Source of the DNA: Escherichia phage AV112
Sequence record: OR352942.1
Direction: 5' to 3' (one strand)
DNA length: 64,000 nucleotides
Under the pieces are notes generated by a model. It did no database searches, had not been told where the DNA came from, and saw nothing but the letters and a program-made list of their open reading frames with translations. The stretch's first letter is position 1. Each line of letters opens with the position of its first letter. Positions 1-40,568 of the stretch are shown here, in pieces. Both the position numbers and the translations under genes were made by a program.

Positions 1-489
1 AGGACGAGTTAGTCCAGAATCTTCAACTTTATTATAGCCATTGATAACAATTTTACCATCTTTATTTGTAATAGCAATTGTATCAATCTGAAGACCACGT
101 GAAACTCGAAGCAATTGTTGAAGGTCTTCAGCTTTAATTTCAGTAATCACAGAAGCCACTGGGAATTGAATTGGTTTATTAGGAAAAACAATGGTGCTCT
201 TGTCAGCGGCAGGCCAATAAACCGTGGAACGTGTATCTGCAATTTTAATATTACCATCGGTGTGCATTGAAATTTCAGCATCATCAGACACTAGACTCAA
301 AATGCTTAAGAAGCTATTCAAATCATAAAGTGCTACGTCAAAATCAATTTCATCGGAGATATTTGCTTCCGCATAAGTGGTGCCATTAACTGCACGAGTC
401 ATAATAAATTTACCTTGACTCAGCAGAATGCCGGAGTTAATAGAGGCAAAGTTTTTCAGAATAGCGATAGTATCTTTAGACAGTTTCAT
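1..489 (-). CDS. 45: gp45 sliding clamp (partial; C-terminal part lies beyond the window start)
   Basis: Manual reverse-complement translation from the ATG at 487-489 gives MKLSKDTIAILKNFASINSGILLSQGKFIMTRAVNGTTYAEANISD..., closely matching T4 gp45 as recalled. Not in the ORF track because it is truncated. Confidence 0.85.
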   Translation of the reverse strand, partial: MKLSKDTIAILKNFASINSGILLSQGKFIMTRAVNGTTYAEANISDEIDFDVALYDLNSFLSILSLVSDDAEISMHTDGNIKIADTRSTVYWPAADKSTIVFPNKPIQFPVASVITEIKAEDLQQLLRVSRGLQIDTIAITNKDGKIVINGYNKVEDSGLTRP

Positions 490-531
490 TTTATTTCCTT
501 TCAAGACAATTCAAAGTTTATAACAAATTTA

Positions 532-948
532 TTACGCAGCAACCATTTGCTTTTTAATAGCTTCAGGCAGTGATTCAATATATTCTGGAATTTTAGAAGC
601 AACAATTTCGCCAGCTGCAATTAGTTGTTCGTCGGCATCAACACAGTAGAAATCTTCCAGACGCTCAGAACCATCTTTATCAAGAACGATTTTTCCGCCG
701 GCTTCAATAGAATCTTTATAGTGCTTACGCATCAGATGAATCCACATATCAGATACATCATTATCAATAAAACCATAAATCATAAAACGAGTTTCTTGTG
801 GCAAAGATTGGAGTTTTTTAGCACTTGCGTCATCACAATGCAGGACCCATGCTTTACGAACACGATTATGGTTATGTGGGTTAGCGTCAGTACGGATAGA
901 AGTAACTTTCAGATCAGCAGCGGTGAAACCTTTAGCAGTAGTAAACAT
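532..948 (-). CDS. rpbA: RpbA-like RNA polymerase-binding protein (assigned by position between 45 and 46)
   Basis: 138-aa ORF in the position T4 rpbA occupies; assignment is positional, sequence not verified. Confidence 0.5.
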   Translation of the reverse strand: MFTTAKGFTAADLKVTSIRTDANPHNHNRVRKAWVLHCDDASAKKLQSLPQETRFMIYGFIDNDVSDMWIHLMRKHYKDSIEAGGKIVLDKDGSERLEDFYCVDADEQLIAAGEIVASKIPEYIESLPEAIKKQMVAA

Positions 949-960
949 ATTATTTCTCTC

Positions 961-1161
961 TTATTCGTAGAAGTCGGTAACTGTCCATGCGGAATTGCGA
1001 TTAGACATTATTTTATTATACTCATCTTTAAAAGCAGATTTGAGCATTTGTTCAGTAACAATATGTTCTTCACCTGAAAACGTATTGGTCAAAACATATT
1101 TTTTAATTTCAGGGACAACGAGAAGATGTTGGCCGGTTGAATACTCCATGTTGTTCTCCAT
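961..1161 (-). CDS. hypothetical small protein (45.2-like by position)
   Basis: 66-aa ORF between rpbA-like gene and gene 46. Confidence 0.4.
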   Translation of the reverse strand: MENNMEYSTGQHLLVVPEIKKYVLTNTFSGEEHIVTEQMLKSAFKDEYNKIMSNRNSAWTVTDFYE

Positions 1162-1203
1162 TTAATTTGATGTGGTCATTATAACCACATCTTGTTAAAG
1201 CGT

Positions 1204-2892
1204 TTATGAAACAGTCATTACCGTAAATCGTCCAACTTTGCTCATTTGAAGATGTTGTCCATAACGTTGAGGGTCATGGTCTCGATGAGAGATAATGAAC
1301 ACATTAGTATTTTGTAAACTTCCAAGAATGGTATCTATAGCCTTAACAGCCTCAGAATCGACAGCACCATCAAAAACCTCATCAAGAATCAGAGTGTTGA
1401 TTTTAACACCAGAGACCTTTTCAGCAATATCTCGCCATGTAAACAACAATGCGATATCGATACGTGCCTTTTCACCTTGACTAAATGAAGCATAACTAAA
1501 ATCTTCACGACCACGTGATTTTATAGATTCATTGAATTCTTCGTCAATAGAAAACACGTAATCAGCTTCCATGATTTTAAGATAATAGTTAATCTGCTTG
1601 TTGAACAGAGGCACATATTTTTTAATGATAGCACCTTTAATACCAGAATCTTTTAACATATCTGTGATAATACCACGATGGTATTTTTCAAGAACGATAT
1701 CAGATTTTGTTTTAATGATTTTATCAAGTTCTTTTTGAAGCAAAGCTATCTCATCAGCATGGTCGATAAATTCCGCCGAGGCTTGTTCTATTGCAGCTTT
1801 AACTTTCTTAGCTTTATCAATAGTGGCAATCATTGCTTGTTTCTTGGTACGAATATCAGATGCAAGGTCCTGTTTAGTCTTAACATTAGCTCTATATTCG
1901 TCCACTAGGACACTCAGATTATCTCTGTGGCATGTAAGTTGCTCGAATGAGTGATTACATTCGTGAAGCTTATCGGTAATCTTAGAGACAATAGGATCAC
2001 CCTGGTGCAACTGCGATGCACAAGTAGGACATGTACCACCATCATGATACATCTTAATAACTTTGTTATATGAGTCGATTTTAGATTTAATCAAGAATGC
2101 TTCTTGTCCGATCTTGTTGAATGCCTCAGTAGGGTCTTCGTCAAGAACGATATTAAGTAGACGCTCATTAGCTTCTTCAATTTCTGCTTTTAATGAACGA
2201 GCTTCTTTGGCTAGGTCGTCATACATATTCTGTAGACGCGCTACATTATCACCAGATAATTTCTTTTGTCGTTCGATATTCTCGTTATAAATCTTAATTT
2301 GTTGGATAACACCATCTTTCTTGGCATCGAGAACTTGTCCCTGGGAATTAAGTTCTCGAACTTGAGACTTATTGATTTTATCCATTTCAGCGAGTGTGCC
2401 GACTTCTAAAAGGTCTTCGACAAGTTTTCTGCGAGCAGGGGTGCTAAGAGCCATGAAAGGGGTATACCCTGCCGTCCCAAGCACAACGATTTGTTTAAAA
2501 GACGCGTATGACATTCCGATGCTGCGTTCAAATTCTTCTTGGAAGTCACGACTGCTGGCAGATTCATCAAGACGAACACCGTCAACGGAGATTTCGAAAA
2601 TATTGGGCTTTTGGCCACGTTTAATGAAGTATTTTTTACCATCGAATTCCATCCAAAGCTCAACTAAGAGCTCTTTCTTGTTCGTGCTATTAATGATTTG
2701 CCCTTTCTTAACATCACGAAATGGTTTACCGAAAAGTCCGAAAGTAATGGCTTCTAACATCGTAGATTTGCCACCACCATTTTTACCAGTGATTAATGTC
2801 TTTTGGACTTTATCTAATTGGATATCGATAAAATTTTGCCCAACAGACATTATATTTTTATAACGAACACGATTTAATTTAAATGTTTTCAC
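1204..2892 (-). CDS. 46: gp46 recombination endonuclease subunit (Rad50/SbcC-like ATPase)
   Basis: 562 aa; Walker A GKNGGGKST near the N-terminus, long coiled-coil middle with CPTC zinc hook, C-terminal LILDEVFDG Walker B/signature region; same length class as T4 gp46. Confidence 0.92.
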   Translation of the reverse strand: MKTFKLNRVRYKNIMSVGQNFIDIQLDKVQKTLITGKNGGGKSTMLEAITFGLFGKPFRDVKKGQIINSTNKKELLVELWMEFDGKKYFIKRGQKPNIFEISVDGVRLDESASSRDFQEEFERSIGMSYASFKQIVVLGTAGYTPFMALSTPARRKLVEDLLEVGTLAEMDKINKSQVRELNSQGQVLDAKKDGVIQQIKIYNENIERQKKLSGDNVARLQNMYDDLAKEARSLKAEIEEANERLLNIVLDEDPTEAFNKIGQEAFLIKSKIDSYNKVIKMYHDGGTCPTCASQLHQGDPIVSKITDKLHECNHSFEQLTCHRDNLSVLVDEYRANVKTKQDLASDIRTKKQAMIATIDKAKKVKAAIEQASAEFIDHADEIALLQKELDKIIKTKSDIVLEKYHRGIITDMLKDSGIKGAIIKKYVPLFNKQINYYLKIMEADYVFSIDEEFNESIKSRGREDFSYASFSQGEKARIDIALLFTWRDIAEKVSGVKINTLILDEVFDGAVDSEAVKAIDTILGSLQNTNVFIISHRDHDPQRYGQHLQMSKVGRFTVMTVS

Positions 2893-3754
2893 TTAAATTT
2901 TTCCTCATGAATTCAGAAACTAAAGCCTGTAAAGAACTTTGTATAGGATATCCTAAATTGACTAAATTTTTAGAAAAAGTCACATATTTAGGTTTGTTCA
3001 TTTTAACCCATTCATCGTAAAGCATATCAAAATTTTCCCAATGATATCCTTTTCTTCTAGATTTCAAATGAGTGTCTCTAACTTTAGGATTTTTCCAACT
3101 GCGTGAAACTCCAGCCGATAATGATTCTCTATATTCGGCTGTTTTAGATATTTTACGACAAGCATCCAAATGTTTTTGTTTATTAATAGGGTCACTAAAC
3201 CACTTTTGGGTCATAATAGAGACGGTTTCTTTAAATTCCTTTGAACTTGTCATAATTCTGTGTTTCTTTAAATTTTCCGGATTTTTAAACCATGCTTTTA
3301 AAGCTTGACTAATCTTAATTCTATTATCCTGATTGGAATAGTATAATGTCATTTTTATAGAATTAACTTTACAAACATTTTCGAATTCTAAAGAATACGC
3401 CTCGGCTATATTATTTAGTTCATGCGTTGTACAATTTAAATTAAATCGCCCGGTATACATTCTTTGAAGCGCGTTAATCATCTTGTGGTTGCCAGTTTTT
3501 GCCAAAATGCTATGTGCAATAAAATGGTTATAATGACTTAAATGACACAAGTTCCATTTACATGTTTTAAAATCTGGAAAAATAGATTTTGGTAGTATAT
3601 GGTGAACCTGAGTCAGTCCTTTTACTTTATTAGTTGAATTAGTTTTTATAAAGTTTAAATACTCATCAAGTCCTTCCCACGAAGGGAAGGAGGTTTTAAG
3701 AATTTTATAAATTTGAGTTTCATAATCAGTCTTCGTCATTATACGCGTCCTCAA
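2879..3754 (-). CDS. free-standing HNH homing endonuclease (Mob-like)
   Basis: 291 aa; HNH-like motif QVHHILPKS...CHLSHYNHFIAH and repeated W-x-NP-x-K-H DNA-binding modules (KAWFKNPENLKKH, KWFSDPINKQKH, SWKNPKVRDTH); overlaps the start of gene 46 by 14 nt. Confidence 0.65.
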   Translation of the reverse strand: MRTRIMTKTDYETQIYKILKTSFPSWEGLDEYLNFIKTNSTNKVKGLTQVHHILPKSIFPDFKTCKWNLCHLSHYNHFIAHSILAKTGNHKMINALQRMYTGRFNLNCTTHELNNIAEAYSLEFENVCKVNSIKMTLYYSNQDNRIKISQALKAWFKNPENLKKHRIMTSSKEFKETVSIMTQKWFSDPINKQKHLDACRKISKTAEYRESLSAGVSRSWKNPKVRDTHLKSRRKGYHWENFDMLYDEWVKMNKPKYVTFSKNLVNLGYPIQSSLQALVSEFMRKNLSENI

Positions 3755-3983
3755 TACACGCTTCAGCCATTTTAAGAATAGAGCCAGGAGTATCGTTGTC
3801 CATTATATTAAAGCTAAATTCAACAGCCCAGTCGGTGCAGACATGAACTGCTTTAACTTCATTACCTTCAACGCGTAATGGCTCAATCCAATACTTGATA
3901 GTGTTCTCGAATCCATCATCATCTTTAACGTCCATTTCAACTTCAAGCCTGAGTCCAGCATTGTTAAATTCATCTAAAGTCAT
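3726..3983 (-). CDS. hypothetical acidic protein
   Basis: 85-aa ORF between the HNH gene and gene 47. Confidence 0.4.
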   Translation of the reverse strand: MTLDEFNNAGLRLEVEMDVKDDDGFENTIKYWIEPLRVEGNEVKAVHVCTDWAVEFSFNIMDNDTPGSILKMAEACIEDAYNDED

Positions 3984-4999
3984 TGTGTTGCCTCAATATA
4001 AAGTTCGTTGGAATATTTGACCAGCGCTTCTCTGTCTTCGTCTGAGATATCTGGAATCGCGTCAATATATTCTTTAATGATATCTTGAAGAGATTTAATC
4101 TCGATTTCCTGGTCGTCATCAGATTCAACACTGTTATCAACTTTAGAAACCATACGAAGAGAGTGAACTACTTTTTCAAGTTCAGATTCAAACTTAGTCA
4201 ACTCTGAATCAATTTCTGATACTATAACACGTACGGCTAGATTAGTATAATCAGAATAATTGATTTTGCCTTTAAACGGATAAGTGATTCGTCGATGCCA
4301 TGTTGTTTCGTTAGGAATAAATTCCATACGTTCAACATCAGTGTCAAATACCCAAAATCCGCGCGGGTCGTTCTCATCACCTGCAGTAAGGGTCCATGGT
4401 GTCCCAATATATTTGACGTTAGCAGCTTCAGAGATTGTGTGGAAGTGGCCGGACCAGACTTGTTTATAGGTCTTTAAGAAATCAGGTTCAAGCCCATGAG
4501 ACTTCATTCCTTTATAGAAATAAAAACCATTCAGTTCCCAGTGCCCAACACAATACGCTGCGGAAGAAGTCTTGATGTGCTCTAAGATTTCACCTGTATT
4601 TTCTTCGCACATCCATGGAACGATATCAATCAGACATCCGTCAAAATCTACAGTAGTTGGATGCTCGTAAATAGTAAAGTTTTCAAATTGAGTTAACAAT
4701 TCAGAAACAGTGTTAGGTGTTATTGTATTCTTAAACGCCATGTCATGGTTTCCTATCGTGACATGAACGTGAATGCCTGCTTTAGAAATCATATCAACGA
4801 TTTCACGATTGAATTCCATTGTACGATGTGTTATTGCTTTACGGACGTCAAACCAATCACCGTACTGAATCCAAGTTTTAATCCCATGTTTCTTAGAGTA
4901 TTCAATTGCTTGACGAATACCATCACGTTGAATATCTTGAACCCATGGGTCGTCTTGTTTGACTCCGATATGGAAGTCGCCTAAGTGCAAAATTTTCAT
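3980..4999 (-). CDS. 47: gp47 recombination endonuclease subunit (Mre11/SbcD-like phosphoesterase)
   Basis: 339 aa; N-terminal MKILHLGDFHIG and GNHD metallophosphatase motifs; same length as T4 gp47. Confidence 0.92.
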   Translation of the reverse strand: MKILHLGDFHIGVKQDDPWVQDIQRDGIRQAIEYSKKHGIKTWIQYGDWFDVRKAITHRTMEFNREIVDMISKAGIHVHVTIGNHDMAFKNTITPNTVSELLTQFENFTIYEHPTTVDFDGCLIDIVPWMCEENTGEILEHIKTSSAAYCVGHWELNGFYFYKGMKSHGLEPDFLKTYKQVWSGHFHTISEAANVKYIGTPWTLTAGDENDPRGFWVFDTDVERMEFIPNETTWHRRITYPFKGKINYSDYTNLAVRVIVSEIDSELTKFESELEKVVHSLRMVSKVDNSVESDDDQEIEIKSLQDIIKEYIDAIPDISDEDREALVKYSNELYIEATQ

Positions 5000-31857: not shown

Positions 31858-32331
31858 TTATAGGAGGGTAGTGAGCACCTTATATAATGATTTGCCCATT
31901 ACATATTCCCATTGAGAAGGTTTAATTAAAGCGAATGCATCAAATTCAGGAATCTGACGTCCGTCTTGGAATGTATGATAGGAATTACAAACACTGTTTC
32001 TGAATTGCTCGTGCTCTACAGGGATGGTATATAGGAACAGATGAATATTCTTATTGTCTGAGTAATGATGTTCACCTAGGTCTTTCAGGAAGGCAGGGTC
32101 ATATTGTGTAAACCCAGTTTCTTCTTCGCATTCACGAACAGCGGCTTCGATAGGAGATTCACCTGGCTCGACACGGCCTTTAGGAATATCCCACCGATGA
32201 GCTAAAGAACCTTTAGGACGAGAACCAGTTACACGCCCCATGAATAATTCTTTATCTTCGGTAAGGAAAATAATACCGGCTGATAGTTCTTTCACTTTAT
32301 TTTTCTTACTCATCATCTCAAATTCCTGCAT
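31858..32331 (-). CDS. nudE: Nudix hydrolase NudE
   Basis: 157 aa; Nudix box GRVEPGESPIEAAVRECEEETGF. Confidence 0.85.
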   Translation of the reverse strand: MQEFEMMSKKNKVKELSAGIIFLTEDKELFMGRVTGSRPKGSLAHRWDIPKGRVEPGESPIEAAVRECEEETGFTQYDPAFLKDLGEHHYSDNKNIHLFLYTIPVEHEQFRNSVCNSYHTFQDGRQIPEFDAFALIKPSQWEYVMGKSLYKVLTTLL

Positions 32332-32804
32332 TCGGTAATAAAACGTTCAACTTCATTATTCTTGGCCTTTATCTTGTCTTTACGTTCCTGTAAACTACTT
32401 TTAACAAGATTAATAATGATGGCGGCGGTACCGCCGCCAATGATGCCACCAACAACACTTATGATACTAGATGCTAATAAGATAGCAATAATATCAACAA
32501 AACCGAAAGAACTCACCTTAGTACTGAAAAACCATATAGACGGCACAAATATAATCCATCCTGTTATCCATTGGCACTTATTGAAAAACTTTTCAAGCTC
32601 AGCTTGAGTTGTTCGTATTACTTCATCGATAGGTTTATATCCATTAATGTATCTGTTCACGATAATACCTGCTGGCTGGTCGATTTTAAATTCTTGGCAA
32701 ATATGTTTAACTAAGTAGGATGGACATCCTGTCCAATCTACTGAATAGTATGAAATACCTTCATTGCCATCGTCTATATTAGACCAATATGTTTTGTTAA
32801 TCAT
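32313..32804 (-). CDS. membrane protein with C-terminal xFIxECR tail
   Basis: 163 aa; hydrophobic segments; ends ...NNEVERFITECRNLR. Confidence 0.5.
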   Translation of the reverse strand: MINKTYWSNIDDGNEGISYYSVDWTGCPSYLVKHICQEFKIDQPAGIIVNRYINGYKPIDEVIRTTQAELEKFFNKCQWITGWIIFVPSIWFFSTKVSSFGFVDIIAILLASSIISVVGGIIGGGTAAIIINLVKSSLQERKDKIKAKNNEVERFITECRNLR

Positions 32805-33491: not shown

Positions 33492-33797
33492 TTATTTTCC
33501 TCGGCATTCTTTAATGAAATTTTCTAGATTGGTAGATTCAATAGCTTTTTTACGAGCTTCTGCGTGTTCTTCTTCAGACAATTTACATTTATAATTGACC
33601 CAGGCATTATGGTCGAAACTAGTCGTGGCATATAATAACAATGCTCCGACGAATAATAAAAACGGTGATAAGAATACAAAACCAGGAACACCATCCATAT
33701 CGTAAGCCTTTTGTAATACTGCAACAGAAAGGGCCGCGTAAAAAGGTGATGCAAATATTGTTAAAAGACCAATTCGGTTGGTTTCTGTTAATTTCAT
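33492..33797 (-). CDS. membrane protein with C-terminal xFIKECR tail
   Basis: 101 aa; two hydrophobic helices; ends ...NLENFIKECRGK. Confidence 0.5.
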   Translation of the reverse strand: MKLTETNRIGLLTIFASPFYAALSVAVLQKAYDMDGVPGFVFLSPFLLFVGALLLYATTSFDHNAWVNYKCKLSEEEHAEARKKAIESTNLENFIKECRGK

Positions 33798-33826
33798 ATT
33801 ATTCTCCTCATGTTTTAATAGGACTA

Positions 33827-33854
33827 CTATAACATAGTCCTATCATGTTGTAAA
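33827..33854 (-). promoter_or_regulatory. early promoter/stem-loop cassette (palindrome ataggactactataacatagtcctat)
   Basis: Minus strand TTTACA-17 nt-TATAGT with the -10 inside a 9-bp inverted repeat; near-identical copies at 35112-35150 and 41876-41915. Confidence 0.55.
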
Positions 33855-33867
33855 CAGTTTTGTGAAG

Positions 33868-34824
33868 TTATTTGAAAGGTTTCACCATATGAAAATTTTC
33901 TTTAAACCGTTTGATGTAATCATTTTTGCCGAGCTTATGATACATAGCCACTACTTCATAATAGTTCTCGTATGCGTACTCACGGAACCAACCAGAGGTG
34001 ATGCTTGTACAGACCTTTTCCAATGCCATCATGAAACTGGCTTCAGGGTTAATTTTAAAGTCATTAGGAATCTGAGAACGTTCTAATGCTAGTACACATG
34101 ATTCTTCGTATACACCGGCCAATTTGACCATTTCTGGTAATGATTCGAACTTCTCTCGTGAGGTCATGACTTCAGAACCGTCTTTCATATAAAATGTATA
34201 CGCTGGACGGTCTGTTAGCGCAATGGCTTCATGAATAGTATCATGGTCATATGTATAGATGTCATCTTTAAAGAACGCACTTTTAGAAGTGTCAAGAACT
34301 GGGTGAGCATAGTTCAAGGTTTCTTTCTGGCGTTTCAGCATAATTTCAGTAAGTTCATCGTTCAGTGTAACACCTTTACCGCGAAGATACTGAATATGGT
34401 TCATAGTCTTTAAAAAGAATGGATTATTTTTCTTGAAACGATGAGACATCTTAATTGCAAGACACATCTCAGGAGTTGCCCAGTAAAACCCGTTCAAACG
34501 GTCTTTAGTCAAATTTTTCTTGGCGTATTTTAAAAGGTCATAAGAAGACGTGAAATCTTCAGGAGTGAGTTCACCGACTAATTCACGGACATTAGTGATT
34601 GCCGGAACAATATATGCTTCAAAATGAGTTTCGCGTCCGTTATGGAAACATTTGAAAACTTGGACACCAGGGTTATCTTGATGAACGTATACACCCATCA
34701 TTTGATTTTTGAATGCATTCCAAGAACCTTGGTCTGCAATAAAGTCCCAGTCACTATTTTTGATAGCGTTAGAATCAATAAGACCGTGATAGTGAAGTGC
34801 ACGAGAACCAATAACTAACATCAT
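33868..34824 (-). CDS. hypothetical protein (318 aa)
   Basis: N-terminal VIGSRALHYHG...SDWDF vaguely nucleotidyltransferase-like but spacing atypical; no secure assignment. Confidence 0.4.
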   Translation of the reverse strand: MMLVIGSRALHYHGLIDSNAIKNSDWDFIADQGSWNAFKNQMMGVYVHQDNPGVQVFKCFHNGRETHFEAYIVPAITNVRELVGELTPEDFTSSYDLLKYAKKNLTKDRLNGFYWATPEMCLAIKMSHRFKKNNPFFLKTMNHIQYLRGKGVTLNDELTEIMLKRQKETLNYAHPVLDTSKSAFFKDDIYTYDHDTIHEAIALTDRPAYTFYMKDGSEVMTSREKFESLPEMVKLAGVYEESCVLALERSQIPNDFKINPEASFMMALEKVCTSITSGWFREYAYENYYEVVAMYHKLGKNDYIKRFKENFHMVKPFK

Positions 34825-34852: not shown

Positions 34853-35104
34853 TTAAATTTCACGACATGCGATATCATATTCATCCCATAGGTCATCGTG
34901 TGAAGCCTCTACTAATGGAACGATTGTACCATTTATGTCTTCATTATAAGGGCAAATTGTACAGTGTGCATCTTCGAATCGGATGCCTTTGTGTTCAGAT
35001 TTTTTATAACGCATATCGAATATCTTTGCAAACTTTTCACGAGTAATGGTTTTAGCAACCACTTTGGTTCCAACACTTTCGTAATAAATCATTGTGGACT
35101 CCAT
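34853..35104 (-). CDS. hypothetical Cys/His-containing protein
   Basis: 83-aa ORF. Confidence 0.4.
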   Translation of the reverse strand: MESTMIYYESVGTKVVAKTITREKFAKIFDMRYKKSEHKGIRFEDAHCTICPYNEDINGTIVPLVEASHDDLWDEYDIACREI

Positions 35105-35111
35105 TTAATTT

Positions 35112-35150
35112 GATAGGACTACTATAACATAGCCCTATCTTGTTGTAAAC
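35112..35150 (-). promoter_or_regulatory. early promoter/stem-loop cassette (copy)
   Basis: gataggactactataacatagccctatcttgttgtaaac; RC TTTACA-17 nt-TATAGT. Confidence 0.55.
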
Positions 35151-35154
35151 TGTT

Positions 35155-35352
35155 TTAGCAAGAATAACTAGATGATACCCAGCCTTGAACAGTAATACTA
35201 TTATTTGATACCGAGATTGCATTCTGGAGATTCAAACCTGCATTATCTTCAATCCACAATGTAACTTCTTCGCGTTCTTCTGTTGCAATTTGGAACAGGT
35301 TTTCTAGGGCAGCTACTGCCGTACGTACAGCACAATCCAATTCACGAGACAT
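35155..35352 (-). CDS. small protein, C-terminal W-V-S-S-S-Y-S-C tail family, member 1
   Basis: 65 aa ending ...ITVQGWVSSSYSC. Confidence 0.45.
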   Translation of the reverse strand: MSRELDCAVRTAVAALENLFQIATEEREEVTLWIEDNAGLNLQNAISVSNNSITVQGWVSSSYSC

Positions 35353-35361
35353 GTAGTTTCC

Positions 35362-35634
35362 TTAGCAAGTGTGAGAAGATGCAATCCAACCACCAGTTTC
35401 AAGGCTCAGGTTGTAGTCGTATTGGTAAACGTCAGCCCATTCAGCATAGCCGTTTTTTGTACAACGTTCAAGATCGGCTTTAAGTTGTCCGGGTGAATGA
35501 TATGTTCCACCCATACCATAAGCTGGATACAAGTCGAATGTTGTGTTTTGTTTATCAGCAATTTCTTTGGCAGCCTCAATAGCTGCATAGATTTTTGCTA
35601 CGGCTTCAGCCAGTTCGGTTTGTTCTTTAGACAT
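35362..35634 (-). CDS. small protein, C-terminal W-I-A-S-S-H-T-C tail family, member 2
   Basis: 90 aa ending ...LETGGWIASSHTC. Confidence 0.45.
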   Translation of the reverse strand: MSKEQTELAEAVAKIYAAIEAAKEIADKQNTTFDLYPAYGMGGTYHSPGQLKADLERCTKNGYAEWADVYQYDYNLSLETGGWIASSHTC

Positions 35635-35643
35635 AATGATTCC

Positions 35644-35949
35644 TTAGCACAACGCAGAAGACGAAACCCAAGCACCTTCAGTAATAACGTAACCATTACC
35701 TTCACGCTTAACATCGCCACCATTATTTTCAATTTCATCTTTCATCCACTGGGATACGATTTCACCCTTAGGATAATAAGTACGACCGCTACCATAATCA
35801 CCTACAGAAAATGATACGGCGTATTGGTCTGCGATCTTTGTTGCTTCTTCTTCGATACGTTCAGCTTGATTCAGAAGTTTATAAATTGCATCTGAAGCGG
35901 ATTTGGCATCATTAAACTCTGGTACTTTAATTTCAATAATCTTACTCAT
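35644..35949 (-). CDS. small protein, C-terminal W-V-S-S-S-A-L-C tail family, member 3
   Basis: 101 aa ending ...ITEGAWVSSSALC. Confidence 0.45.
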   Translation of the reverse strand: MSKIIEIKVPEFNDAKSASDAIYKLLNQAERIEEEATKIADQYAVSFSVGDYGSGRTYYPKGEIVSQWMKDEIENNGGDVKREGNGYVITEGAWVSSSALC

Positions 35950-36305
35950 TTTCTACATTCCTTAATAAAGTTTTCGATTGTTTCATTTTCACGTCTAGCT
36001 AGGAGTTCATTATAACTAATCATTTGAGAAGCGTAAACCTTTTTATTTTTCTTGTTATGGTTTATAAAATCGTAGTAAAAATAGACTACAGTACAAAATG
36101 ATGCGATGGATGCAAAGGCTTGGGTATACCGTAAGTCCTGCCATTGGTCTGTGAATCCACCAGTGTTCCCTATAAATCCTAACACAACGCCGTCAATAAG
36201 AAATCCAACTAATCCAAAGGCAAATCCCATGCCAATACTCATAATAAAAATTAGAATGTTCTCACCAAGAGAAGGCCATACGGTTAAGAGTTGAGGCTTT
36301 TGCAT
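35946..36305 (-). CDS. membrane protein with C-terminal xFIKECR tail
   Basis: 119 aa; hydrophobic core; ends ...ENETIENFIKECRK. Confidence 0.5.
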   Translation of the reverse strand: MQKPQLLTVWPSLGENILIFIMSIGMGFAFGLVGFLIDGVVLGFIGNTGGFTDQWQDLRYTQAFASIASFCTVVYFYYDFINHNKKNKKVYASQMISYNELLARRENETIENFIKECRK

Positions 36306-36709
36306 CTTATTTCCTTAACGAATTCCATAGCTTCTTCATATTCGTACTTTTTAACAGCTTCATCATACTGAGCTTGGGCTTTTGCGCACTGAACTTTCCA
36401 TTCTCTTAATCGGGCTCTATAATGACGTCCTTGGTGCCAATATCCTACCCAATTAATAGGCATTAATAAAAACGGTACAATAAGTGGTGCGACGAACATT
36501 AATGAAAATGCTGCATCAGACGATATAACTTCACTAGAATCTAAAACAGCTCCTATAATCGTAAAGATTAAAAATGCTAAAGCTAAAATAGGGCCAAATA
36601 GTACTTCGTTTGGGATTAATTTACGCTTGTATTCATACGCCCAGGGCTTAATTGGCATGTATAGGGTTGGCTTTGACATATTCTCTACATTCCATAATAA
36701 ATTGCTCAA
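36284..36709 (-). CDS. membrane protein with related C-terminal tail (EFVKEIRCK)
   Basis: 141 aa; hydrophobic segments; ends ...EEAMEFVKEIRCKSLNS; start probably an internal Met. Confidence 0.45.
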   Translation of the reverse strand: MSNLLWNVENMSKPTLYMPIKPWAYEYKRKLIPNEVLFGPILALAFLIFTIIGAVLDSSEVISSDAAFSLMFVAPLIVPFLLMPINWVGYWHQGRHYRARLREWKVQCAKAQAQYDEAVKKYEYEEAMEFVKEIRCKSLNS

Positions 36710-37265
36710 GGATTAAATTGTTAGTGAAATTAGGACTAACAACCATGGTTTCATAAAGCGCATCAATAGCACTTAAAGCATCAACTCTTTTAAGCAAAGG
36801 CTTGCCTTCATACATAGTTTCAGAATCGACGATTAACGTAAAGTAATATTTTTTATTATTGACCAGAACTTCTGTATCAATATAAAACATGTTAGATCTT
36901 AAAAGCTTATCTCTAAAACCATAATAATCTTCAGAGCGTTCGCTGATATATTCCAATTCAGTGTTTAAACAACAAACAGACCACGTAGGAGCAACGAAAT
37001 CAGTGAATCTAATATCATGGTCTGCAACTAGTTTAGCAATAGCTCCGATATCATGAATCATAATACCTGGGGCTAATAAAGATTTTCGGTTATTTGCATA
37101 TTCAGTTGTCTCATAAGAAGACGACCAGTACCATTTACGTCCAGTTGCAACATATCGTAATGAATCAACTAAAGACGTAGGTGGATTTACCTTATTTCGG
37201 AACTCTTCGAACATTGAGTCAATATCATTATTTTGGTTTCGCATGTTAACTCCTTTATTATCCAA
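36648..37265 (-). CDS. soluble protein with xFIMECR motif near the C-terminus
   Basis: 205 aa; ...NNLILEQFIMECREYVKANPIHAN. Confidence 0.45.
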   Translation of the reverse strand: MDNKGVNMRNQNNDIDSMFEEFRNKVNPPTSLVDSLRYVATGRKWYWSSSYETTEYANNRKSLLAPGIMIHDIGAIAKLVADHDIRFTDFVAPTWSVCCLNTELEYISERSEDYYGFRDKLLRSNMFYIDTEVLVNNKKYYFTLIVDSETMYEGKPLLKRVDALSAIDALYETMVVSPNFTNNLILEQFIMECREYVKANPIHAN

Positions 37266-39740: not shown

Positions 39741-39816
39741 TGGTCGAGACAGTAGGGGTCGAACCTACGACCTAGGACTTAGAAGGTCCTTGCTCTTCCT
39801 TCTGAGCTATGCCTCG
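39741..39816 (-). tRNA. tRNA-Arg (anticodon TCT), CCA encoded
   Basis: Manual fold: acceptor CGAGGCA/TGTCTCG, D-arm GCTC..GAGC, anticodon loop CTTCTAA, T-arm GTAGG-TTCGACC-CCTAC. Confidence 0.8.
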
Positions 39817-39820
39817 GATT

Positions 39821-39895
39821 TGGCGGACATGCATGGATTCGAACCATGGACCAATTGATTAACAGTCAACTGCTCTACCACTGAGCTACACATCC
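39821..39895 (-). tRNA. tRNA-Asn (anticodon GTT), CCA encoded
   Basis: Manual fold: acceptor GGATGTG/CATGTCC, D-arm GCTC-AGTGGTA-GAGC, anticodon loop CTGTTAA, T-loop TTCGAAT. Confidence 0.75.
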
Positions 39896-39899
39896 AAAT

Positions 39900-39986
39900 T
39901 GGTTGGGAGTGATGGAGTCGAACCACCTGAGTCGCAATGACAATGGATTTACAGTCCACACCGCTACCTCTACGGGATAACTCCCC
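39900..39986 (-). tRNA. tRNA-Tyr (anticodon GTA), long variable arm, CCA encoded
   Basis: Manual fold: anticodon stem GTGGA/TCCAT, loop CTGTAAA, about 15-nt variable arm, T-arm GGTGG-TTCGACT-CCATC; pair 1:72 appears as G-A, so the 5' end is uncertain by 1 nt. Confidence 0.6.
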
Positions 39987-39995
39987 AAATTAATT

Positions 39996-40070
39996 TGGTG
40001 GCCCTGGGTGGAATTGAACCACCATCTGGCGATTATGAGTCGCTTGCTTGAACCTTCCAGCTACAGGGCC
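39996..40070 (-). tRNA. tRNA with anticodon CAT (Ile2/lysidine type or elongator Met), CCA encoded
   Basis: Manual fold: acceptor GGCCCTG/CAGGGCC (1:72 paired, so not initiator), anticodon loop CTCATAA, T-arm GGTGG-TTCAATT-CCACC. Confidence 0.7.
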
Positions 40071-40071
40071 T

Positions 40072-40147
40072 TGGTGCTGATTGACGGAATTGAACCACCG
40101 ACCTTCTCATTACAAGTGAGTTGCTCTACCTACTGAGCTAAATCAGC
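40072..40147 (-). tRNA. tRNA-Thr (anticodon TGT), CCA encoded
   Basis: Manual fold: acceptor GCTGATT/AATCAGC, D-arm GCTC-AGTAGGTA-GAGC, anticodon loop CTTGTAA. Confidence 0.8.
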
Positions 40148-40152
40148 AAAAC

Positions 40153-40242
40153 TGGCGGAGGCGATAGGATTTGAACCTATGAGTCGCCGGAGCGACTGCC
40201 GGTTTTCAAGACCGGTGCATTAAACCACTCTGCCACGCCTCC
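40153..40242 (-). tRNA. tRNA-Ser (anticodon TGA), type II, CCA encoded
   Basis: Manual fold: acceptor GGAGGCG/CGCCTCC, anticodon stem CCGGT/ACCGG, loop CTTGAAA, long variable arm, T-arm ATAGG-TTCAAAT-CCTAT. Confidence 0.8.
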
Positions 40243-40244
40243 AG

Positions 40245-40318
40245 TCTCCATACAAGGATTTGAACCTTGGACCTCCTGATCCCAAATCAGGCGCTCTACC
40301 AAACTGAGCTACACGGAG
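40245..40318 (-). tRNA. tRNA-Pro (anticodon TGG), no encoded CCA; 2 nt upstream of tRNA-Ser
   Basis: Manual fold: acceptor CTCCGTG/TATGGAG, D-arm GCTC-AGTTTGGTA-GAGC, anticodon loop TTTGGGA, T-arm CAAGG-TTCAAAT-CCTTG. Confidence 0.8.
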
Positions 40319-40328
40319 TAAATTAAAT

Positions 40329-40402
<74 letters not shown>

Positions 40403-40407
40403 AAATT

Positions 40408-40494
40408 TGGTGCGAGAAGTGGGACTCGAACCCACAAGGAAATCATTCCGCAGCATTTTAAGTGCTGTGCCTTTACCAATTTGACCATTCTCGC
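40408..40494 (-). tRNA. tRNA-Leu (anticodon TAA), type II, CCA encoded
   Basis: Manual fold: acceptor GCGAGAA/TTCTCGC, anticodon stem CAGCA/TGCTG, loop CTTAAAA, long variable arm, T-arm GTGGG-TTCGAGT-CCCAC. Confidence 0.8.
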
Positions 40495-40495
40495 G

Positions 40496-40568
40496 CTGGG
40501 AATAAAGGACTCGAACCTTTGCATCCTGGAATCAAAATCCAGTGCCTTACCAACTTGGCTAATTCCCA
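40496..40568 (-). tRNA. tRNA-Gln (anticodon TTG), no encoded CCA; 1 nt upstream of tRNA-Leu
   Basis: Manual fold: acceptor TGGGAAT/ATTCCCA, anticodon stem CTGGA/TCCAG, loop TTTTGAT, T-arm AAAGG-TTCGAGT-CCTTT. Confidence 0.8.

Follow-up and report, generated by a model that had tools for sequence, protein, structure and literature searches.

Small cysteine-tailed proteins and a nucleotidyltransferase-fold partner as a putative two-gene module of large phages

Enzymes with the pol-beta nucleotidyltransferase (NTase) fold are known to modify small partner proteins, as in GlnD-PII, MntA-HepT and CitX/MdcG, and the last of these attach a phospho-linked group to a serine of small acidic carrier subunits. 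Other NTases include the MenT toxins, for which the acceptor is the 3' end of transfer RNA (tRNA), and the ANT and Lnu enzymes, for which it is an antibiotic sugar. The nearest known kind to the locus described here comprises the MenAT and AbiE systems, used by bacteria against phages, together with the protein-nucleotidylylation pairs, all of them built from an NTase and a small cognate partner. In this work, we examined a 64,000-nucleotide stretch (hereafter, the window) of Escherichia phage AV112 (OR352942.1), typed as an RB69-like Mosigvirus, in which three consecutive minus-strand genes at 35155-35949 encode proteins of 101, 90 and 65 amino acids (aa) with similar, cysteine-terminated tails. 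Comparison across phage genomes indicates that this trio is one example of a phage-specific module of two genes, widespread yet unstudied, in which such Cys-tail genes precede a gene for a protein with the domains DUF7277 and DUF7275.

Several features set the module apart from MenAT and AbiE. Its putative enzyme belongs to neither by sequence and matches only DUF7277 and DUF7275 in Pfam; its small proteins show no relationship to MenA or AbiEi and come in arrays of one to six; and it resides in virulent large phages, not in bacterial chromosomes. Since antitoxin homology, AbiEii membership and bacterial residence were all looked for and none was found, we do not class the module as a MenAT/AbiE member. 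The GlnD-PII, GlnE-GS, MntA-HepT and CitX/MdcG systems likewise combine an NTase-fold enzyme with a small protein in which a hydroxyl-bearing motif is invariant; however, no sequence relationship to them was detected, modification of the phage tail is a proposal, and to our knowledge a C-terminal cysteine is a feature of none of these systems. ANT(2'') and LnuA target small-molecule antibiotics and work without a partner protein, whereas the phage enzyme possesses an extra, highly conserved helical DUF7275 domain of ~190 aa. Multi-precursor clusters of ribosomally synthesised and post-translationally modified peptides (RiPPs) of the prochlorosin type also place several paralogous small genes, some with repeated motif units, beside one enzyme, but the phage proteins are predicted to be folded, their tail is invariant, and no RiPP maturase, protease or exporter was found in the neighbourhoods.

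The Cys-tail family and its conserved terminus

A first-pass annotation of the window had reported three co-oriented small genes with the tails AWVSSSALC, GWIASSHTC and GWVSSSYSC, and both the open reading frame (ORF) list and the sequence place them exactly there (Table 1). These are the only ORFs of at least 30 aa that end in W..SS..C when all six frames of the window are searched by regular expression, so the pattern of endings is not a product of chance. The same annotation described the N-terminal parts as unrelated, which proved incorrect: a BLASTP alignment of the 90- and 101-aa proteins spans 73 residues (E-value 4e-6), and the two have the loop YG[MS]G[GR]TY..PxG in common and both match phrog_899 (E 1.9e-18 and 1.3e-22, respectively), and a single family hidden Markov model (HMM) recognizes all three proteins (E 2e-23 for the 101-aa, 1e-21 for the 90-aa and 5e-4 for the 65-aa protein). 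The last match is weak because the central loop is absent from the 65-aa protein, which matches phrog_4882 (E 1.6e-36) and whose ortholog in Dhakavirus ESCO10 occupies the same position in the array. These similarities indicate that the trio consists of diverged paralogs, the 65-aa form being a shortened paralog that retains the helix and the tail.

Word-indexed searches returned close relatives only, whereas an exhaustive search of 1.84 billion representatives with a HMMER profile recovered 187 clusters (50% identity, E ≤ 1e-3), nearly all of 65-140 aa and aligned through the very last residue. Small phage proteins with this ending thus form a large family, and the motif is kept across many phages far beyond AV112 rather than tracing to a recent local duplication, the explanation against which the first-pass annotation had set its own view. 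The family plan comprises an N-terminal amphipathic helix (…EAExIADEhgl), an AYGMGGTYYPkG loop, a variable and very acidic linker, and a tail with the consensus G-x-W-x-[S/A/P]-S-S-x-x-Cys-COOH, present in all three AV112 proteins. Among the 134 representatives that end in Cys, tryptophan occupies position -7 in 133, and serine occupies positions -4 and -3 in 133 and 132, respectively. The proteins are acidic, with a mean isoelectric point (pI) of 4.75 for the family and values of 4.1-4.7 for those of AV112.

In 151 distinct genes from the fetched loci, the invariant serine positions draw on all six Ser codons, the terminal cysteine on both of its codons, and the genes on all three stop codons. 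This full codon usage argues for selection on the protein and not on an overlapping RNA or ribosome-binding signal, and it shows that the tail is under protein-level selection. Minor variants of the tail (W-x-S-S-x-C, W-x-x-S-S-C and W-Y-S-S-S-M-x-x-C) were also observed, and a second Cys-tail subfamily, present in 13 of 69 dereplicated neighbourhoods, combines an internal …W-L-N-S-S-C-Y-G… with a terminal …W-x-P-S-S-C, with zero spacing. Extra internal W-x-S-S(-x-C) units lie within the acidic linker of 26 of 146 members, for instance …DRWESSSEGWESSSEGWVSSSSQC and …DWDSSGCEWDNSGCYQEDYGWNASSAHC, against 1.9 ± 1.4 expected from residue shuffles; this excess suggests that the motif acts as a repeatable recognition unit.

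Arrays hold from one to six small genes per enzyme gene, with up to six in an Otagovirus. Dhakavirus genomes have five tandem copies at the same genomic place as the AV112 trio, which in ESCO10 (OM386655.1) encode 97, 93, 65, 70 and 74 aa. The product names in this ESCO10 record follow the T4 gene order and are out of register with the actual genes, so that Cys-tail genes appear under the labels “inhibitor of prohead protease,” “helicase” and “group I intron endonuclease.” We rejected the first of these labels as a functional lead, given the displaced names and the fact that T4 Inh is dissimilar and has no Cys tail.

AlphaFold2, run with a 115-sequence alignment, predicts that the 101-aa protein is well folded, with a mean predicted local distance difference test score (pLDDT) of 93.9 and a predicted template modelling score of 0.80. 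The model has a long helix (residues 15-43) and a small sheet, and the tail forms a strand (93-96) followed by a helical turn (97-100). Known families offered little by way of functional insight. The small proteins have no significant match in Pfam, NCBIfam or PADLOC, where Peptidase_S78_2 and E217_Gp32 of Pfam (E ~0.01, below the cut-off) were treated as noise; the PHROG families of the trio are of unknown function, and every database name is “hypothetical protein.” A profile search of PDB sequences found designed helical bundles alone, through the N-terminal helix, and Foldseek against BFVD found uncharacterised family members alone. Full-text literature searches returned nothing relevant on RB69ORF136c-139c, the tail motif strings, DUF7275/DUF7277 (PF23940/PF23942), phage MenT-like NTases, or Mosigvirus together with nucleotidyltransferase. 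Judged by their distribution and composition, the Cys-tail proteins constitute a large, phage-specific, uncharacterised family of small acidic proteins.

Linkage to a nucleotidyltransferase-fold protein

The first-pass annotation had pointed to the neighbouring genes of relatives as a place to look for a modifying enzyme, and a conserved enzyme-like DUF7277/DUF7275 gene was found there. In two divergent family members, from metagenome and NCBI contigs, the next gene encodes a ~310-aa protein with both domains. The AV112 trio lies upstream of the corresponding gene, RB69ORF134c (33868-34824), on the same minus strand and with RB69ORF135c alone between them; ORF135c occurs in T4-like relatives and is not a universal part of the module, as elsewhere a Cys-tail gene often abuts the enzyme gene directly.

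Linkage was tested in both directions with HMMs on six-frame ORFs. Starting from the small protein, the enzyme-like gene was located on the same strand and within ~1.4 kb in all 37 IMG/VR loci with downstream sequence; the other two of the 39 loci are on contigs that end before the expected position. Starting from the enzyme, 71 of 80 loci carried one to five HMM-detectable Cys-tail genes upstream (median gap 541 nt), and four more had divergent upstream ORFs ending in …WVQSSC, …WDSSTC, …WASSRC and …WDSSSANC. When enzymes were collapsed at 80% identity into 69 groups, a Cys-tail gene was present in 64 of the 69 neighbourhoods, against at most 11 for any other gene family, and 122 of the 124 main-cluster Cys-tail copies were upstream of the enzyme gene. 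The surrounding genes differ entirely among carrier phages, which suggests that the pair itself is kept together. Our findings therefore indicate that the Cys-tail and DUF7277/DUF7275 genes are a two-component module whose strictly oriented synteny is kept across phage lineages.

Erwinia phage Hallingskeid (PQ464590.1) has a solitary Cys-tail gene (…EGAWISSSQMC) directly downstream of RNA ligase and polynucleotide kinase genes, with no NTase within 2.5 kb. In Escherichia phage nieznany (NC_052659.1; Phapecoctavirus), the two Cys-tail genes that immediately precede the NTase gene are separated by two small genes, for one of which the record note cites a vs.4 gene product. T4 vs.4 is the anti-CBASS sponge Acb2.

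The partner has the nucleotidyltransferase fold of the MenT/AbiEii/ANT(2'') type with intact catalytic residues. RB69ORF134c matches DUF7277 with 94.4 bits (E 7e-27) and DUF7275 with 260.4 bits (E 1e-77), the gathering cut-off being 27 for each. Its structural matches, with scores in parentheses, are the MenT1 toxin (8an4; 10.1), ANT(2'') (8.7), MenT3/TglT (8.7), MenT4 (8.0), TM1012 (7.7) and LnuA (7.2). The pol-beta NTase pattern hG[GS]...[DE]h[DE]h...acidic residues is present, and G6-S7, D25-x-D27 and E69, invariant in the family alignment, make up the canonical catalytic set. DUF7275, a helical domain of ~190 aa, shows exceptional conservation, notably at K125, H128, R165, E168, Y172-H174-P175, H194-D195, H198, E240-E241, E248-R249 and K270-V-C272-T-S-I-T-S-G-W. 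By sequence, however, the partner falls outside every named NTase family: when seven diverse homologs were scanned against Pfam, DUF7275 and DUF7277 were the only matches, with no AbiEii/DUF1814 at E ≤ 10, and the partner's profile retrieved nothing below E 1 from PDB sequences. RlaP, an RNA-ligase-associated NTase from a jumbo-phage review, was also considered, but the Pfam matches were again to DUF7277 and DUF7275 alone.

Position 272 of the NTase is Cys in 111 of the 114 sequences in which the motif was found, and Ile in three distant homologs without Cys-tail genes. We did not use this co-occurrence as evidence, as it is a clade-level correlation and the L067 and L084 loci keep the Cys without a nearby partner. 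Shorter, distant NTase homologs (251-263 aa) occur in Streptomyces phage Beuffert, Gordonia phage ClubL and Vibrio phage K412, none of which has a Cys-tail gene upstream. Each is followed by a ~100-aa protein, and the two actinophage proteins have a TGY[YR]DS motif in common; this protein may be an alternative partner in actinophages. In Beuffert, an RNA ligase is encoded ~1 kb upstream of the distant homolog.

The module is carried by unrelated groups of large phages, including Straboviridae (Mosigvirus, Dhakavirus and Lazarusvirus), Tevenvirinae, Twarogvirinae, Otagovirus (~99 kb), Phapecoctavirus (~145 kb), ACP17-like phages of Acidovorax, Aeromonas phages (~230 kb) and jumbo phages (~370 kb). 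Every isolate that has it is a phage with a large genome, of about 99-366 kb. No T4 homolog was found in tblastn searches. Across 185,579 bacterial and archaeal species, each represented by one genome, only five loci were recovered, all of them on phage-like contigs of metagenome-assembled genomes (MAGs), and four of the five also had a Cys-tail gene. This distribution suggests that the module is essentially restricted to phages.

Gene context and expression signals in AV112

Across the segment 34800-36400, identity is 100% with Escherichia phage AV113 and 97.5% with RB69. In RB69, the trio forms an insertion that separates e.3 from a block of RB69-specific genes. In the RB69 reference (NC_004928, 69734-70040), a 1-nt insertion splits the 101-aa gene into ORF139c and ORF138c, and a TCT->CCT change also replaces the invariant tail Ser(-3) with Pro. 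The gene is intact in most Mosigvirus records, and 126 records are at least 99% identical.

The first-pass annotation saw in the three genes an apparent operon read from the cassette upstream of 35946-36305, and a tight unit behind e.3 is indeed there: the e.3 stop overlaps the start of paralog 1, and paralogs 2 and 3 are each preceded by a 9-nt spacer with TAAGGA. Because of this tight gene spacing, the trio is probably read together with e.5-e.4-e.3. Between the hairpin that follows e.6 (37268) and position 35150, two minus-strand promoter-like sites were detected; all promoter-like sites listed are consensus matches only, and their total number in the scan is not above the shuffled expectation. 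Two near-identical TTTACA-17-TG-TATAGT sites bracket the pair formed by ORF135c and the NTase gene, and they resemble T4-type early promoters (GTTTAC…TATAAT).

Five genes flanking the trio, namely e.2, RB69ORF133c, e.3, e.4 and e.5, share the C-terminal motif F-[IV]-x-E-[CI]-R, a second conserved Cys-containing C-terminal motif within the same gene block. Their endings include ENFIKECRK, ENFIKECRGK, ERFITECRNLR and EQFIMECREYVK, and similar ones occur in relatives. A cluster of 10 tRNA genes is located ~4 kb upstream of the module, and tRNA genes lie within ~5 kb of the NTase in 14 of the 69 dereplicated neighbourhoods. This proximity is suggestive given the MenT-like fold, but we set it aside as evidence, since it is too weak and is confounded by phylogeny.

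Table 1. Coordinates of the Cys-tail genes, their partner gene and associated features
Feature	Sequence	Position	Strand	Remarks
Cys-tail paralog 1, 101 aa	AV112 window	35644..35949	minus	RB69ORF139c+138c, intact; ends EGAWVSSSALC; N-terminal helix, YGSGRTYYPKG loop, tail AWVSSSALC-COOH (tail codons 35647-35670); ORF list and sequence
Cys-tail paralog 2, 90 aa	AV112 window	35362..35634	minus	RB69ORF137c; ends TGGWIASSHTC; AYGMGGTYHSPG loop, tail GWIASSHTC-COOH (tail codons 35365-35388); ORF list and sequence
Cys-tail paralog 3, 65 aa	AV112 window	35155..35352	minus	RB69ORF136c; ends VQGWVSSSYSC; helix and tail GWVSSSYSC-COOH (tail codons 35158-35181), central YGxG loop deleted; ORF list and sequence
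RB69ORF135c, 83 aa	AV112 window	34853..35104	minus	phrog_3723; between trio and NTase-like gene
RB69ORF134c, 318 aa	AV112 window	33868..34824	minus	Conserved partner; DUF7277 (residues 2-101) and DUF7275 (residues 120-305)
e.3	AV112 window	35946..36305	minus	Upstream of trio; stop overlaps paralog 1 start (ATGA)
Promoter-like site	AV112 window	36037-36009	minus	10 of 12 consensus matches; consensus scan
Promoter-like site, weaker	AV112 window	35936-35908	minus	9 of 12 consensus matches; consensus scan
TTTACA-17-TG-TATAGT promoter-like site	AV112 window	35121..35149	minus	Within the 50-nt gap that follows the trio; precedes ORF135c and the NTase gene
TTTACA-17-TG-TATAGT promoter-like site	AV112 window	33826-33854	minus	Near-identical to the preceding site
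Terminator-like hairpin	AV112 window	37285-37268		After e.6; scan
Genes with F-[IV]-x-E-[CI]-R motif	AV112 window	32313-32804, 33492-33797, 35946-36305, 36284-36709, 36648-37265	minus	C-terminal motif
tRNA gene cluster	AV112 window	39741-40568		10 tRNA genes
Second Cys-tail subfamily, example	ESCO10 locus	4015-4239		
Second Cys-tail subfamily, example	Another locus	4709-4954		
Distant NTase homolog	L126	2878-3968		
Distant NTase homolog	L127	2809-3890		
Distant NTase homolog	L128	2818-3922		
Solitary Cys-tail gene locus	Hallingskeid locus (PQ464590.1)	1-2719		
Two Cys-tail genes with the vs.4-noted gene between them	nieznany locus (NC_052659.1)	1750-3766		

Possible functions and significance

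We propose, with a confidence that falls a little short of an even chance, that the NTase recognises the tail and that a tail hydroxyl or thiol is the acceptor, one enzyme serving several small proteins. In such a scheme, the NTase-fold enzyme would recognise the invariant W-x-[S/A/P]-S-S-x-x-Cys-COOH tail and transfer a nucleotidyl or phospho-linked group to a hydroxyl of the Ser-Ser pair, or possibly to the terminal thiol. Early in infection, a single enzyme would thereby serve one to six arrayed small acidic proteins, its substrates or carriers, and the downstream target could lie in tRNA or RNA-end biology, a possibility raised by the MenT-like fold. A hydroxyl acceptor is proposed because the structural neighbours all modify hydroxyls, and a recognition role because the motif recurs as extra units in the linker. 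One to six small genes per enzyme, together with solitary copies, accord better with many substrates for one enzyme than with a one-to-one antidote. GlnD-PII, MntA-HepT and CitX/MdcG offer a precedent for the modification of small partners by pol-beta-fold enzymes. We infer all four elements of this scheme, namely contact between the two proteins, the tail as acceptor, the chemistry and the downstream target. Taken as a whole, a hitherto unrecognised phage-specific protein-modification system, in which the DUF7275-bearing NTase covalently modifies the Ser-Ser-x-x-Cys-COOH tails of an array of small proteins by nucleotidylylation, by a phospho-linked prosthetic group, or by elimination and thioether formation, is possible, and we consider it rather doubtful.

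Several observations weigh against tail modification. AlphaFold2 puts the tail inside the fold (pLDDT ~90), and it may accordingly be a structural or ligand-binding site instead of a free acceptor. Both serines are invariant and threonine never substitutes for them, which is unusually strict for an acceptor, and most known protein-modifying pol-beta NTases take tyrosine as acceptor. Furthermore, a few enzyme loci (L067, the L084 group and L119) have no detectable Cys-tail gene, one Cys-tail gene of a jumbo phage is far from any enzyme, and the synteny signal comes partly from related phages and is thus not fully independent.

The principal alternative is that the small proteins are antitoxin-like inhibitors or chaperones of a tRNA-modifying MenT/AbiEii-like NTase, which the phage would use against host translation or in tRNA-end repair, the tail plugging the active site as a pseudo-substrate. 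The prominence of MenT1, MenT3 and MenT4 among the best structural matches is in keeping with this idea, as is the MenAT/AbiE operon order with the small partner first, the NTase second and both on one strand; acidic small proteins could also mimic nucleic acid, and tRNA or RNA-repair genes are sometimes nearby. We nevertheless judge it unlikely, given that the module is essentially absent from bacterial genomes, that up to six paralogs accompany one enzyme while solitary copies also exist, that the small proteins resemble MenA and AbiEi neither in sequence nor in fold, and that the partner fails to match AbiEii/DUF1814 in Pfam even at the permissive threshold used. We hold it just as improbable that the Cys-tail proteins are independent effectors which act alone on host targets, as anti-defence decoys, as metal or redox binders through Ser-Ser-Cys-COOH, or by docking the tail to a host protein, and which merely share an early-gene cassette with the NTase. 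They are indeed small, acidic, multi-copy and located in an early region, like known anti-defence genes; their predicted fold is autonomous, the nieznany gene whose record note cites vs.4 sits between two of them, and the jumbo-phage copy stands away from any NTase. What independent action leaves unexplained is the NTase as sole conserved neighbour, in constant order and on a constant strand.

Much less probable still is a RiPP-like scheme, in which the N-terminal part would serve as a leader and the tail as a core that is processed, for example through Ser activation and elimination and then Cys addition to a thioether ring, and finally released. Several precursor-like paralogs upstream of a single enzyme, the repetition of the motif inside some members, and an S-S-x-x-C spacing compatible with lanthionine-type rings would suit such a role. 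However, the proteins are 65-140 aa long with high predicted confidence over the whole modelled chain, the putative core is the most invariant part and not a variable one, and no protease, transporter, LanM/LanKC, YcaO or radical-SAM family is a conserved neighbour in the 69 neighbourhoods or in the Pfam matches of the window neighbours. The first-pass annotation's idea of an enzyme substrate or docking tail thus gains from the conserved enzyme-like neighbour and the selected tail, whereas its reading as a classical precursor peptide loses from the predicted fold and from the tail being the best-conserved part. An artefactual origin, with the tails arising from nucleotide-level constraint by the stop codon and the Shine-Dalgarno TAAGGA of the next gene, or with ORFs that are not genes, can be excluded: although TGC-TAA-GGA doubles as the ribosome-binding site of the next gene at two junctions, the motif persists through every synonymous Ser and Cys codon and every stop codon, it is equally kept in the last gene of the array with no gene close behind, and 187 protein clusters and a confident predicted fold speak for real proteins.

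Hundreds of sequenced large phages that infect Escherichia, Klebsiella, Enterobacter, Aeromonas, Acinetobacter, Pseudomonas, Erwinia and other hosts carry the module, among them T4-like phages of therapeutic type and members of the BASEL collection, yet each of its components is annotated as “hypothetical.” Pairing the enzyme-like gene with an invariant short motif provides a directly testable hypothesis for DUF7277, DUF7275 and PHROGs 899 and 4882. Modification of the tail by the enzyme, if it occurs, would amount to a new post-translational chemistry in phage infection, and the modified proteins would form a novel class of phage effectors or carriers in the early infection of Gram-negative hosts. 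If, on the other hand, the small proteins restrain a MenT-like enzyme, the module would be the first phage-borne counterpart of MenAT/AbiE. Either outcome would be relevant to the ways in which large phages evade defence or manipulate tRNA and translation.

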